A stretch of DNA of 64,000 nt from an uncultured bacterium (lineage in GTDB: Bacteria > Patescibacteriota > Minisyncoccia > Phycocordibacterales > CAIRYW01). The notes beneath the pieces are model-generated. The model worked only from the letters and a program-made list of their open reading frames with translations. It ran no database searches and was not told where the DNA came from. Of this stretch, positions 20,457 to 22,029 are shown one piece after another. The translations under genes and the position numbers were made by a program. The DNA is taken from NCBI GenBank assembly GCA_903882905.1, contig CAIRYW010000019.1, forward strand, positions 1,406 through 65,405. Direction: 5' to 3'. Positions within the stretch are counted from its first letter, which is position 1. Every line of letters begins with the position of its first letter.

Positions 20457-20458
20457 TG

Positions 20459-20531
20459 TGTCGGAGGTGGGGATCGAACCCACGACCCCAGGCTTATGAG
20501 TCCTGTGCTCTACCGACTGAGCTACCCCGAC
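20459..20531 (-). tRNA. tRNA-Met or tRNA-Ile2 (anticodon CAT), elongator type
   Basis: Reverse complement GTCGGGGTAGCTCAGTCGGTAGAGCACAGGACTCATAAGCCTGGGGTCGTGGGTTCGATCCCCACCTCCGACA folds as a canonical cloverleaf; G1-C72 pair, so not initiator-like; no encoded CCA. Confidence 0.85.
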
Positions 20532-20629
20532 AAATTCTCAATTTGTTATTTATACTACAAACCGGTATTTAAATAAAGATTTGACTTGAAATAGCTTTAA
20601 AATAAGAGTAAGATACTTGAACTTATATA

Positions 20630-20698
20630 GCGGGATGGAGGAGTAGTACCTCGTCAGGCTCATAACCTGAAGACATCGGTGCAAGTCCGGTTCCCGCA
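20630..20698 (+). tRNA. Non-canonical tRNA-like gene with CAT anticodon (69 nt; D-loop lacks GG, T-loop TGCAAGT)
   Basis: Acceptor GCGGGA/TCCCGC, D-stem GAGG/CCTC, perfect anticodon stem TCAGG/CCTGA with loop CTCATAA; atypical D and T loops. Confidence 0.45.
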
Positions 20699-20784
20699 AC
20701 ACGTAATACAATTTAAGCTTTCTTTTCTATTTTTTTTCTAAATATAGGTTAGCATAATTTCCTGTCACGGTATATAATTATATT

Positions 20785-21474
20785 GTGCCAATATATAAGG
20801 AAGTAAACAAAAAATTTTTCAAAAAATGGAATCCTGAGATGGCTTACGTTTTGGGTTTTTTTGCTGCTGATGGATATATAACGATAAATAAAAGAGGTGG
20901 TCATTTTTGGTCGATTCAAATTACAGATGAAGATTTACTTAATAATATAAGAAGAGTTATTAGATCAAATCATAAAATCAGTTCAAGAAAAAAAATCGGT
21001 AATAAGAAAATTAGTTATAGATTACAAATAGGAAGTATGGAAATGTGTGAGGATTTGTCCCAATTAGGATTTAGCGAAAGAAAAACGAAAAATCTTTCTA
21101 TCCCAAATGTTCCTGAAAAGTATTTCAAAGATTTTGTTAGGGGATATTTTGATGGAGATGGGAATGTTTGGGTTGGTTACACGCATAAAAAAAGTAAAAA
21201 TCCGCTTAATGTTGTTAGAACAGTCTTTACTTCTTGTGCTTTAGAGTTTCTTAGCACTTTAGGAAAAAGACTTGAAAAATTTTCAATATACAAAGGTGTA
21301 GTTAGTAAAGGAAAGGGAAATTACTACAGACTTACGTATAGTGTTCACGGTTCTTTAAAATTATATGATTTTATGTATAATGGTCTAAAATCAGATTTAT
21401 TTCTTAATAGAAAGAAAATGGTTTTTGATAGGTTTATCGAAAGTAGAAGAGTTGCGGCTGTAGCTCAACGGTAG
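20785..21474 (+). CDS. LAGLIDADG homing endonuclease (double-motif, free-standing)
   Basis: LGFFAADGYI and RGYFDGDGNV motifs; the last 21 nt overlap exon 1 of tRNA-Asp. Confidence 0.8.
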   Translation: MPIYKEVNKKFFKKWNPEMAYVLGFFAADGYITINKRGGHFWSIQITDEDLLNNIRRVIRSNHKISSRKKIGNKKISYRLQIGSMEMCEDLSQLGFSERKTKNLSIPNVPEKYFKDFVRGYFDGDGNVWVGYTHKKSKNPLNVVRTVFTSCALEFLSTLGKRLEKFSIYKGVVSKGKGNYYRLTYSVHGSLKLYDFMYNGLKSDLFLNRKKMVFDRFIESRRVAAVAQR

Positions 21475-21742
21475 AGCACTCCCCTGTAGAATACTGCAGC
21501 TTTCTGTCGAAATGGCAGATTGAAACTCTCTGGGATATCGGTGAAGGCTAAGTTTACAAACTGTAAATATGCGAATACCGAGGGAACCCCTTTGTTTAAA
21601 ACTTTGGGGGCGCCGTAGAGACTAGATACCAGAGCACCTAAACCTTGATTTATCAGGCACGGTGAAGATATAGTCCACGCCTTTATGAAAATATTGGATA
21701 AGTGCACGGGAGAGGTCGAGGGATCATCACCCTTCAGCCGCG
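21454..21742 (+). tRNA. tRNA-Asp(GTC) interrupted by a group I intron (exon 1 21454-21487, exon 2 21705-21742)
   Basis: Exons join to a canonical cloverleaf with anticodon loop CTGT|CAC, stems CTCCC/GGGAG, discriminator G; 3' flank is ...AAG, so no encoded CCA. Confidence 0.7.
21488..21704 (+). ncRNA. Group I intron (217 nt, ORF-less) in the tRNA-Asp anticodon loop
   Basis: 5' splice site after U (P1: exon CUGU with IGS GCAG at 21497-21500); P7-like GACUA 21620-21624 / UAGUC 21671-21675; terminal G 21704. Confidence 0.6.
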
Positions 21743-21922
21743 CAAGAAAAAAACGCCTAAAGGCGTTTTTTTTTGTGGCTGAGAAAGGTGTGGGACACCT
21801 TTCGCAAGGGCGATGATGGGCGCAACGATGTTTTGTCAGCAGACAAAACAGTGAGCTGGGATAGCAAAATTTCCGAGCGACGGCGAAGAAATATTTGTGA
21901 TCATCACCCTTCAGCCGCGCAA
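21743..21922 (+). mobile_element. tRNA-associated mini-element E1: terminator + ~150-bp element ending AAATATTTGTGATC, then a 24-bp direct repeat of the tRNA-Asp T-loop-to-3' end with a second terminator
   Basis: gatcatcacccttcagccgcgcaa at 21722-21745 repeated at 21899-21922; interior motifs gttttgtcagcagacaaaac and agcgacggc shared with E2/E3. Confidence 0.55.
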
Positions 21923-22029
21923 TAAAAATCCCCGAAAGGGGATTTTTTCGTGGTCAATAAAAGCATAAGTAACGAAATAGATAAACCTACGTCTTTTGTG
22001 TTGTCTAAATCTGGTATAATTTTCTACAT

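Follow-up and report, generated by a model that had tools for sequence, protein, structure and literature searches.

A free-standing gene for a double-motif LAGLIDADG homing endonuclease is physically entangled with the tRNA-Asp gene in Patescibacteria. The protein is encoded in at least 507 species-representative genomes of this group and a tRNA-Asp(GTC) gene lies immediately downstream of its gene in 75 of 75 assessable loci, 36 with a group I intron in the tRNA and 39 without; the gene is thus tied to tRNA-Asp and not to the intron. In the window, by which is meant the whole 64,000-nt stretch of DNA analysed here (all features described below lie on its + strand), the endonuclease gene runs into a split tRNA-Asp gene and carries in its own promoter a short mimic of that tRNA gene. 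With moderate confidence, we propose that the enzyme would cut canonical tRNA-Asp genes, that the carrier's own copy would be protected either by the intron or by a change in the D-arm, and that the promoter mimic would act as an uncleavable operator for autorepression. The arrangement appears to be an undescribed variant of free-standing or collaborative homing: no description of it was found in the searched literature, where the sole related statement, made in passing, is that CPR tRNAs can carry group I introns (PMC8172020).

An intact endonuclease gene overlapping a split tRNA-Asp gene

The endonuclease gene (20785-21474) starts with GTG and encodes 229 aa. The product matches Pfam LAGLIDADG_3 (E 1.4e-13) and contains the motifs LGFFAADGYI and RGYFDGDGNV, whose catalytic aspartates, D29 and D125, are encoded at 20869-20871 and 21157-21159; both motifs and both aspartates are invariant in A1 and, with few exceptions, across 72 loci. 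Searching the PDB by sequence yielded no close characterised relative (best profile E about 2e-4). The AlphaFold2 model (pLDDT 90, pTM 0.88) consists of two alpha-beta-beta-alpha-beta-beta-alpha domains with their elements in the expected order, and its top Foldseek matches are all LAGLIDADG enzymes; I-AniI, I-HjeMI and I-Tsp061I are the best PDB neighbours and, together with bI3 maturase, match the model at E about 1e-10 to 1e-9 and TM 0.63-0.68. The modelled fold would form the tandem-domain DNA-binding saddle of such endonucleases. The dN/dS ratio of the gene is 0.09-0.24, pairs of intronless loci included, and the ORF product is a monomeric LAGLIDADG protein of two domains, intact and maintained by selection. 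Cutting both DNA strands at a specific target of ~20 bp is a putative activity of this protein, with the site predicted from the 23-bp promoter mimic.

The tRNA-Asp(GUC) gene that follows is split in two. Exon 1 (21454-21487, GCGGCTG...CCCCTGT) comprises the 5' strand of the acceptor, a short D-arm, the 5' strand of the anticodon stem and C32, U33, G34 and U35; exon 2 (21705-21742, CACGGGAG...CAGCCGCG) resumes with C36, A37 and C38 and continues through the 3' strand of the anticodon stem, the T-arm and the 3' strand of the acceptor to a discriminator G, with an atypical T-arm loop (AUCAUCA) and no encoded CCA. The first 21 nt of exon 1 double as the last six endonuclease codons and the stop, a TAG at 21472-21474 that falls in the D-loop of the tRNA. 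Throughout the family the endonuclease stop lies inside the tRNA, usually at U8-A9-G10, from which the window differs; the protein C-termini ...MR[SPL]* come from ATG-CGG-NCG-TAG, that is, from tRNA nucleotides 1-10. ARAGORN with default settings misses the split gene in the window; with its intron option, it reports tRNA-Asp(gtc) with a 217-nt intron, and the 39 intronless orthologues read continuously through CTGTCAC. A free-standing LAGLIDADG gene with a 21-nt overlap and a tRNA-Asp(GUC) identity, both claimed by the first-pass annotation, are thus confirmed, the former by the ORF and exon coordinates. Directly 3' of the tRNA lies a terminator-like hairpin, an inverted repeat (AAAAAAACGCCT / AGGCGTTTTTTT) followed by a T run (21747-21772). 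An element that duplicates the tail of the tRNA as a repeat is also present downstream.

The 3' coding region of the endonuclease gene contains a promoter-like element (21354-21381; TTTAAA, 16 nt, TATAAT; 10/12 matches), written in the codons S-L-K-L-Y-D-F-M-Y-N and proposed to be the promoter of tRNA-Asp. It lies 72 nt upstream of the tRNA 5' end in the window and 60-82 nt upstream across the family. Most of the 57 distinct loci that have the element conserve the stretch CTTTGAAA...ATGTATAAT down to its synonymous sites; an in-frame promoter box was not found in 16 other loci, and the spacer of 15-16 nt, which is below the optimum, counts against this assignment. Signs of decay are seen in the family as pseudogenes (L032, L059, L078), loss of a motif (L049), an internal deletion (L116) and C-terminal footprints. 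Loci with a decayed endonuclease retain the embedded element; the deletion edge lies just upstream of CTTTGAAA and the last ~100 nt of the ORF, with the element in them, survive. A side idea is that RNase P cleavage at the 5' end of the tRNA would strip the mRNA of the endonuclease stop codon and leave it non-stop; it carries less weight because of the separate promoter-like element found inside the ORF.

The intron and its facultative pairing with the gene

The intron (21488-21704, 217 nt) lies between U35 and C36 and is ORF-less. It matches the Rfam group I model RF00028 with 53.0 bits (gathering score 50, E 3e-12) under permissive filters only; a default Rfam scan misses it. Default filters applied to the tRNA-Asp introns of relatives report those of L014, L042 and L053 at 52.5-82.5 bits and do not report those of L002, L007, L009, L047 and L081. 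L053 also holds a second, separate RF00028 match of 64 bits. P1 (CUGU|AG-AAUA-CUGCAG) places a U.G pair at the splice site, and G is the last nucleotide of the intron. When 36 homologous introns are aligned (RNAalifold), 35 of the 51 predicted pairs show compensatory changes, the splice-site U.G is invariant (36/36) and the terminal G is present in all. As the intronless orthologues lack any interruption, they fix both the CTGT|CAC junction and the GUC anticodon; the first-pass annotation had named this junction and a 217-nt ORF-less group I intron, and on both points it was right. The pattern of intron and junction is far above chance expectation, and self-splicing to ligated exons is predicted at that junction. 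The insertion position 35/36 is constant across the whole intron family, and it is plausible that it is unusual among bacterial tRNA introns.

A free-standing endonuclease gene next to an ORF-less intron is found in the window and in 35 further loci. On the endonuclease tree, intron-containing and intronless states are interleaved. A sample of intron loci drawn without regard to the endonuclease gene comprises about 24 with the full gene, about 5 with a C-terminal remnant and about 10 with no gene by tblastn, several of these tblastn-negative loci keeping the 3' footprint on inspection. The pairing is therefore facultative, since more than half of the 75 loci have no intron and intron loci often have a decayed or absent gene; joint inheritance of intron and gene, as collaborative homing expects, was not found.

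A tRNA-Asp mimic in the promoter and a proposed homing cycle

The promoter of the endonuclease gene contains a 23-bp bipartite mimic of the tRNA-Asp gene (20747-20769, GGTTAG-N9-CTGTCACG), which is the proposed uncleavable operator. Its left block (20747-20752) equals D-loop positions G18-G22 and its right block (20762-20769) equals anticodon-loop nucleotides 32-39, so that the mimic includes CTGT|CACG, the sequence across the intron insertion site; the 9-nt spacing is that of the tRNA itself, and the centre is AT-rich (consensus comparison anchored on CTGTCA). In a set of 100 distinct upstream regions, the mimic is matched perfectly by 32 and with at most two mismatches by 55; of 2000 shuffles, a single one comes within three mismatches. 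The promoter-like site that the mimic overlaps (20749-20778; TTAGCA, 18 nt, TATAAT; 10/12 matches in the promoter scan) has a -10 box that ends 6 nt before the GTG, and the mRNA is for this reason probably leaderless; the layout TATAAT-N6-(A/G)TGCC is conserved across loci. The mimic is placed between the -35 and -10 hexamers or, in a second clade, over the -10 box and the start codon, where the second promoter architecture (L070-L083) reads GTATAG-N9-CTGTCA. At the level of sequence, the endonuclease's own promoter is overlapped by a homing-site-like putative operator. The left block also overlaps the -35-like TTAGCA, which could contribute to its conservation and counts against the operator reading.

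Two other functions of the motif were considered and rejected. An RNA mimic of the anticodon arm, in the manner of the thrS operator, would call for a stem, and the five to seven flanking positions pair no better than shuffled ones; recognition is likely to take place at the DNA level, because stem covariation around the mimic is absent. A site for reverse splicing of the intron (CCUGU.CACG) is equally present in intronless loci, and the GGTTAG block would be left unaccounted for. The content of the mimic suggests instead that the enzyme recognises the corresponding stretch of the tRNA gene, a site that the intron would interrupt. To this extent the collaborative homing invoked in the first-pass annotation has indirect support, as the mimic copies both the junction sequence and the D-loop block at the spacing of the tRNA; the pairing with an intron is not the core of the system, for 39 of 75 loci have no intron and the intron also occurs where the gene is decayed or absent.

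The state of the D-arm is associated with that of the intron. Of the intron-containing tRNAs, 24 of 36 have GGTTAG at precisely the right offset, and of the intronless ones 4 of 35 (odds ratio 15.5, p 2e-6, with phylogeny ignored; both the type of D-arm and the presence of the intron go in part with the clade). Intron-containing tRNAs keep a canonical D-arm and intronless tRNAs mostly have aberrant ones: a 1-nt insertion (GGTTAG-T-AGC), GGTTAAC, GGCCAA, GGCTAA or a shortened D-loop. An intronless locus that combines the canonical target (GGTTAG-N9-CCTGTCACG) with the lack of a promoter, L049, has lost LAGLIDADG motif 2. Exceptions are L052, L067 and L071, which are intronless with GGTTAG at the right offset and have single changes elsewhere in the site, and L006, L019 and L030, which are intronless with an apparently intact gene and have the short-D-loop type of tRNA that the window's spliced tRNA also represents; either this type is already resistant, in which case the window intron would not be needed for immunity, or tRNA-Asp is not cut. 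Recent co-conversion of the exons is an unlikely cause of the uniform D-arm of intron alleles: the anticodon stem, which is nearer to the intron, is more variable than the D-arm.

In the proposed cycle, the enzyme would recognise canonical tRNA-Asp DNA over about 22 bp that reach from the D-loop into the anticodon loop (predicted target, nucleotides 17-39, TGGTTAGAGCNCNNNCCTGTCACG) and cut alleles devoid of the endonuclease gene. Repair from the donor allele would copy the gene into the cut allele together with the neighbouring immunity determinant; the gene lies only about 25 bp from the proposed cut and often between two conserved tRNA genes. The carrier's tRNA-Asp would escape through an intron that splits the right-hand block (CTGT|CACG) or through an altered D-arm. 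As the promoter copy combines both recognition blocks with a TATAAT-like centre, the protein could bind there, leave the DNA uncut and repress the leaderless transcript that encodes it; such binding has a precedent in PDB entries that show I-SmaMI on 'uncleavable central four' DNA. After invasion, the tRNA would depend on the promoter inside the endonuclease gene, so that the ORF could decay while a footprint of ~100 nt persists. The window intron is best seen as a putative immunity partner in collaborative homing and not as the original home of the gene.

That the gene once resided inside the intron and moved out, leaving a rearranged classical mobile intron, had been offered as an equal alternative in the first-pass annotation. 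Its adjacency to an ORF-less intron in the window would fit; no ORF was found in about 80 related introns (36 + ~45, all 194-300 nt long), and the intronless loci have the gene at the identical overlapping position, which makes such a relocation very improbable. The protein could also have been domesticated and be mobile no longer, kept by host-level selection because it binds DNA to regulate its own promoter and tRNA-Asp transcription, or because it serves the intron as a maturase in trans. The dN/dS values, the occurrence of the gene in hundreds of species and the presence of the bifunctional I-AniI and of bI3 maturase among the best structural neighbours all agree with this, and so does the comparison with the closest relative (L001), where the gene is syntenic and diverges much like host genes (about 81% identity, against 89% for GatA and 72% for a membrane protein), so that at this locus the pattern looks vertical and domesticated rather than mobile. 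WhiA and other known domesticated LAGLIDADG proteins do not keep their catalytic motifs invariant in this way. Here, by contrast, hardly any variation is seen in either aspartate or either motif; there are many pseudogenes, internal deletions and C-terminal footprints, as a selfish cycle of invasion and decay predicts, the intron states interleave on the protein tree, and a maturase role would leave the 39 intronless loci unexplained. Domestication is for us an unlikely explanation that retains an appreciable chance.

The promoter motif might, alternatively, be the historical relic of an invaded tRNA-Asp-like sequence (a Loizos-type 'endonuclease-gene invasion') later recruited as a promoter; the true cleavage site would then be another one, such as the junction immediately before the tRNA 5' end. 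Sequences flanking I-TevII do resemble the I-TevII target (PMC3984707), and the mimic overlaps both -35-like and -10-like hexamers. A neutral leftover would not outlast divergence to 45-65% protein identity, though, and conservation is highest in CTGTCACG, a block within the promoter spacer, a region in which sigma-70 promoters have no sequence constraint; the motif is moreover kept in two different promoter layouts, and no trace of a tRNA acceptor or D-stem is seen upstream of GGTTAG. A relic is hence improbable.

The reading of the mimic as an operator and of the tRNA as a target leads to a broader and more tentative picture, one that we would put somewhat below even: in much of the CPR radiation, a selfish LAGLIDADG endonuclease would have taken hold of an essential tRNA gene by overlapping its 5' end, donating its promoter and cutting unprotected tRNA-Asp; the intron and the odd D-arms would be alternative immunity devices from an arms race, the mimic would make expression self-limiting, and the family would be a natural series of all the stages in which endonuclease genes and ORF-less introns join and part. 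If true, this would be the first large cellular case of free-standing or collaborative homing by a LAGLIDADG enzyme, spread over hundreds of species; to our knowledge, the known examples come from phages. It would explain the unusual D-arms of CPR tRNA-Asp genes and why tRNA finders frequently miss them, and it would show that a selfish gene which gives an essential gene its promoter can thereby become difficult to delete. The loci form a natural experiment (gene alone, gene with intron, intron with gene footprint, intron alone) through which one could then test directly how mobile introns arise and whether introns serve as immunity. The predicted target is present in most bacteria, and the family holds about 3000 naturally occurring versions of a compact meganuclease scaffold of 225 aa, every one with a clue to its target built in.

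Comparison with known systems

I-AniI, I-HjeMI, I-Tsp061I and bI3 maturase share the monomeric two-domain LAGLIDADG fold with the window protein at an identity of only 15-19%; they are intron-encoded in mitochondria or archaea, whereas the window gene is free-standing. Group I introns of bacterial tRNAs are known from cyanobacterial and plastid tRNA-Leu(UAA), cyanobacterial tRNA-fMet (with I-Ssp6803I), Azoarcus tRNA-Ile and Agrobacterium tRNA-Arg. Like the window intron, these are small introns of self-splicing type that sit in the anticodon loop, are closed by the anticodon stem and have a U.G pair at the 5' splice site; the window intron differs in its host, tRNA-Asp, and in its insertion after U35, and the endonuclease that accompanies it has its gene outside the intron and is of another family than I-Ssp6803I. 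References for these introns are collected in PMC3984707.

In collaborative (trans) homing, a free-standing endonuclease cooperates with an intron encoded nearby, as F-CphI does with the psbA intron of cyanophages and mobE with the nrdB intron of phage Aeh1 (Zeng et al. 2009; Bonocora and Shub 2009; summarised in PMC3984707). As in these cases, the predicted target in the window spans the intron insertion site, so that the intron would protect its carrier. In comparison with F-CphI and mobE, the enzyme is of the LAGLIDADG family, the host is a cellular CPR chromosome and not a phage, and the host gene is a tRNA gene, which the endonuclease gene overlaps and would supply with a promoter; the gene occurs equally often without the intron, and variation of the putative target appears to substitute for intron protection.

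Two enzymes, SegB of phage T4 and I-TevI, provide the nearest parallels to single parts of the proposed cycle. SegB is reportedly a free-standing GIY-YIG endonuclease in a tRNA gene cluster. It resembles the window enzyme in being free-standing among tRNA genes, and it cleaves within a tRNA gene region, as the window enzyme is proposed to do, with preferential inheritance of its own locus as the outcome; it differs in enzyme family and in being a phage gene, and involves no overlap with a tRNA, no intron and no target mimic in the promoter. I-TevI is said to repress its own transcription through an operator that resembles its homing site, overlaps its promoter and is not cleaved. The homing-site-like operator over the enzyme's own promoter is what the two systems have in common, and we infer for the window protein, too, a binding that leaves the operator uncleaved and represses transcription. 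I-TevI is an intron-encoded GIY-YIG enzyme; in the window, the operator is a predicted one, and protection from cleavage would come from the altered centre of a LAGLIDADG site.

The endonuclease gene, the split tRNA-Asp and its intron

The first-pass annotation had placed a double-motif LAGLIDADG gene upstream of a tRNA-Asp, overlapping it by 21 nt, and this description holds. The open reading frame at 20785-21474 (+ strand, GTG start, TAG stop) encodes a 229-aa protein that matches Pfam LAGLIDADG_3 (E 1.4e-13) and carries the motifs LGFFAADGYI and RGYFDGDGNV; its 3'-most 21 nt are the 5'-most 21 nt of the tRNA, whose joined exons, 21454-21487 (+; 3' end CCCCTGT) and 21705-21742 (+; 5' end CACGGGAG), fold as a cloverleaf whose anticodon loop, CUGUCAC, is that of tRNA-Asp(GUC). 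A default ARAGORN run on the window missed this split tRNA. An AlphaFold2 model built from 30 homologues (pLDDT 90, pTM 0.88) gives the window protein two alpha-beta-beta-alpha-beta-beta-alpha domains; the closest solved structures are I-AniI, I-HjeMI, I-Tsp061I and the bI3 maturase (TM 0.63-0.68, identity 15-19%), and a PDB profile search found no characterised enzyme close by sequence (best E-value 2e-4). Among the loci compared, the overlap is typically 10 nt, the protein ending in ...MR[S/P/L] and the stop codon being U8-A9-G10 of the tRNA; it is 15 nt where positions 8-10 are UGG, and the window uses another frame, stopping at the D-loop TAG. The tRNA-Asp of the window's clade, found also at loci L002, L006, L012, L017, L019, L022, L030, L034, L036, L037, L039 and L044, has a shortened D-loop (AACGGUAG), no encoded CCA and a T-loop (AUCAUCA in the window, GUCAGCA in relatives) without the usual T54, Psi55, C56, A58 pattern.

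[quoted passage not shown] The window intron reaches 53.0 bits (E 3e-12; gathering score 50) with permissive filters only, and the default Rfam scan of the window missed it. Its P1 is CUGU|AG-AAUA-CUGCAG with a U.G pair at the splice site, and its terminal nucleotide is G. In the alignment of the homologous introns the core of GTAGAGACTAGATACC and GAAGATATAGTCC is strongly kept, RNAalifold predicts 51 pairs (compensatory double changes in 35), the U.G pair never varies, and the intron is closed off by the anticodon stem. There are two subtypes: under default Rfam filters both minor-subtype introns scanned (L042, L053) reach about 82 bits each, and one of six of the main subtype is reported (L014, 52.5 bits), the other five going unreported like the window's. 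The junction CTGT|CAC proposed earlier stands independently of the window, since 39 intronless orthologous tRNA-Asp genes read CTGTCAC continuously.

Further intron-like sequences were observed. L053 has a second group I intron (1892-2104; RF00028, 64 bits) beside the tRNA at 2314-2387, some 400 nt upstream of the start of the endonuclease gene, so that CPR tRNA clusters may hold several introns. ARAGORN with its intron option predicts, shortly after tRNA-Asp at L010 (889-1153) and L083 (3300-3555), tRNA-Thr(GGT) genes interrupted by candidate introns of 180-190 nt, in which Rfam reported no group I intron at the gathering threshold. Thirteen human-gut metagenome contigs (L089, L107, L109, L112, L120, L132, L135, L136, L142, L144, L155, L157 and L161) match the intron 5' junction without a tRNA-Asp; their upstream sequence, TTGGTATCTACAGTGC-CCTGTAG..., is unrelated, and its 16-mer is common to them across many gut assemblies.

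Linkage to tRNA-Asp, decay and neighbouring elements

Databases hold 2894 relatives of the protein. Among the best 120, identity is 59-82% and length about 223-230 aa, and those that are named belong to Parcubacteria-group CPR bacteria. A scan of one genome per species finds relatives in at least 507 genomes. Eighty loci were fetched, 75 of them with enough downstream DNA to judge, and tRNA-Asp(GTC) lies immediately 3' of the gene in all 75, with the intron in 36 and without it in 39; the gene is linked to tRNA-Asp rather than to the intron. As the 3' end of a tRNA-Met gene is often found upstream, the gene often occupies the spacer between two conserved tRNA genes. Three loci come from MAGs with non-CPR labels, L025 (Nitrospira) and L059 (Gammaproteobacteria) on 3-3.5-kb contigs and L069 (Azotimanducaceae) on a 28.8-kb contig, probably through binning contamination rather than true host range.

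Almost every copy retains the two catalytic motifs intact, and dN/dS is 0.09-0.24, pairs of intronless loci included. Decay products are nonetheless common: early stops occur at L032, L059 and L078, motif 2 is gone at L049, L116 has an internal deletion, and there are C-terminal remnants. In a sample drawn independently of the gene, by scanning metagenomes for the intron 5' junction and keeping genuine tRNA-Asp introns preceded by 750 nt or more of sequence, the full gene is present at about 24 loci, a C-terminal tblastn match only at about 5, and no tblastn match at about 10, several of which still retain the ORF's final 100-130 nt. Judged by its sequence, the gene is functional, yet it behaves as a selfish element. 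The window and L001/L002, its closest relative, form a pair in which inheritance looks vertical: the locus is syntenic, and at about 81% the identity of the endonuclease falls between that of a membrane protein encoded nearby (72%) and that of GatA (89%). The 'mini' gene of L116, about 300 nt upstream of tRNA-Asp in the oriented locus, joins the putative operator, the promoter and the first 20 or so codons to the last 40 or so, the nuclease body being deleted; it looks like a snapshot of decay with both putative promoters kept.

Just upstream of the endonuclease gene the window carries two divergent tRNA(CAU) genes at 20458-20531 (-) and 20629-20700 (+), which are swapped in order and orientation in L001/L002; the (+) gene, in which position 1 is A and the T-arm (GGUGCAAGUCC) is atypical, is possibly an initiator tRNA or a tRNA-Ile2. 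Downstream, the tRNA tail is directly repeated (21722-21771 and 21899-21948, insert 21773-21898, overall 21722-21948). The same series (terminator hairpin, insert of 110-220 nt, exact duplicate of the 20-25 nt that end the tRNA, second terminator) follows 13 of the 247 tRNA genes of the loci compared: it occurs in L001/L002 after tRNA-Met, at L050 (tRNA-Leu), at L054 (two tRNA-Thr) and at L023, L046, L052, L066, L072, L073 and L080, in the last of which the duplicate includes the terminator too. The insert's 5' end is a hairpin-split reverse complement of the tail, and many inserts have the core GCGGAGC-hairpin-AGYGAGCYGGGG in common. For the window copy the predicted fold is a long rod (-58.9 kcal/mol, z -5.3), and Rfam gives no match; the element could be a structured RNA, an attenuator-like tail/anti-tail/tail arrangement or a tRNA-targeting miniature element.

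Putative promoters upstream of and inside the gene

When gene upstream regions and tRNA-Asp genes are compared, both anchored on CTGTCA, the promoter consensus (tGGTTAG-t.tAaT.tc-CTGTCAcg-.g.TAtAAT-N6-(A/G)TGCC) and the tRNA consensus (tGGtTAG-AGCACtCgC-CTGTCACG) agree in two blocks with the same 9-nt spacing, G18-G22 of the D-loop and C32 to G39. Between them, the promoter copy has an AT-rich, TATAAT-like sequence in place of the tRNA centre. All 14 specified bases match in 32 of 100 distinct upstream regions, 55 have at most two mismatches, and 60 at most three (against 1 of 2000 shuffles). In the window the blocks GGTTAG (20747-20752, +) and CTGTCACG (20762-20769, +) lie inside a promoter-like TTAGCA-18-TATAAT found by promoter scan; 6 nt separate its -10 box from the GTG, pointing to a leaderless mRNA. 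In L070, L072, L074, L077, L079 and L083, which form a second clade, the layout is TGTATAGTGTATAATACTGTC-ATG, with a GTATAG-N9-CTGTCA version over the -10 box and start codon. An RNA stem-loop mimic was ruled out, the positions flanking CTGTCAC being complementary no more than chance. The site of a monomeric LAGLIDADG enzyme typically looks like this 23-bp span, in which two specified blocks flank a centre that is less so; from this we infer that the protein recognises tRNA-Asp DNA from D-loop to anticodon loop, and the promoter copy would be an operator, bound but uncleavable.

A promoter-like TTTAAA-16-TATAAT at 21354-21381 lies inside the 3' region of the ORF (promoter scan, 10/12 matches). 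Over the S-L-K-L-Y-D-F-M-Y-N coding region, 57 distinct loci give the consensus CTTTGAAATTATAyGATTTTATGTATAAT, in which hardly any position varies, synonymous ones included (always TAT-AAT, TTG-AAA), despite saturated dS between these genes; no in-frame box was found in 16 other loci. Its spacing of 15-16 nt is below the sigma-70 optimum, and its TATAAT stands 60-82 nt from the tRNA 5' end. The element is probably the tRNA-Asp promoter. Once invasion has happened, the tRNA would rely on the endonuclease gene's 3' end, and this would explain why that end outlasts decay of the ORF; the footprints left always start just upstream of CTTTGAAA.

Proposed immunity, competing readings and known systems

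If the enzyme recognises the site defined by the mimic, carriers must protect their own tRNA-Asp. The intron interrupts the right-hand block of this site exactly (CTGT|CACG). GGTTAG stands at the exact offset in 24 of the 36 intron-containing tRNAs, another 10 of which share the short D-loop seen in the window (ACGGTAG), but in only 4 of 35 distinct intronless tRNAs (Fisher odds ratio 15.5, p 2e-6, kinship of loci ignored). The intronless variant GGTTAG-T-AGC, in which a 1-nt insertion shifts the block and weakens the D-stem, occurs in several separate endonuclease clades; the rest include GGTTAAC, GGCCAA, GGCTAA and GGATAGT. Both states interleave on a UPGMA tree of the endonuclease proteins. 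The exceptions are informative: L049, with a canonical intronless target, is promoterless and has lost motif 2, L052 has a changed 31-39 pair adjoining the loop, L071 a C25-to-T change, and L067 neither promoter nor overlap. The immunity model is weakened by L006, L019 and L030, which are intronless with intact-looking genes and the tRNA type of the window's spliced tRNA: either the short-D-loop tRNA would already be resistant and the window intron unneeded for protection, or the model is wrong.

The reading we favour, with slightly better than even confidence, is a free-standing homing endonuclease directed against canonical tRNA-Asp genes. It would spread by repair-mediated copying, the gene lying about 25 bp from the cut; immunity would be provided either by a D-arm change or, in a collaborative-homing arrangement, by the intron, the target-mimic operator would limit its own expression, and the gene's 3' end, by providing the tRNA promoter, would entrench it. 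Low dN/dS, vertical-looking inheritance and maturase-like structural neighbours favour a domesticated regulator or maturase, a reading that we consider rather unlikely given the invariant catalytic residues, the decay series and the existence of intronless loci. That the mimic is a relic of an old insertion, now retained merely as a promoter, is less probable still, for CTGTCACG is conserved in the promoter spacer and kept in two promoter layouts. The first-pass suggestion that the gene had moved out of the intron is opposed by every comparison, with no ORF in 36 introns and the gene present at 39 intronless loci, and we regard it as very improbable. The descriptive findings are solid; the mechanism of the favoured homing endonuclease is a testable proposal.

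Free-standing endonucleases, collaborative homing and the endonuclease-invasion model are established in phage systems (PMC3984707), and group I introns in CPR tRNAs have received passing mention (PMC8172020). The literature searched by full text describes neither a tRNA-Asp gene overlapped by a LAGLIDADG gene nor an intron at position 35/36 of tRNA-Asp, nor a promoter mimic of tRNA-Asp, nor a tRNA promoter embedded in an endonuclease gene. Group I introns in bacterial tRNAs are classical, and T4 SegB is, like the present gene, a free-standing endonuclease sited among tRNA genes. The proposed operator has a parallel in I-TevI, a known case of endonuclease autorepression, and its being bound but uncut would parallel the LAGLIDADG complexes with uncleavable 'central four' substrates that appear among PDB titles.
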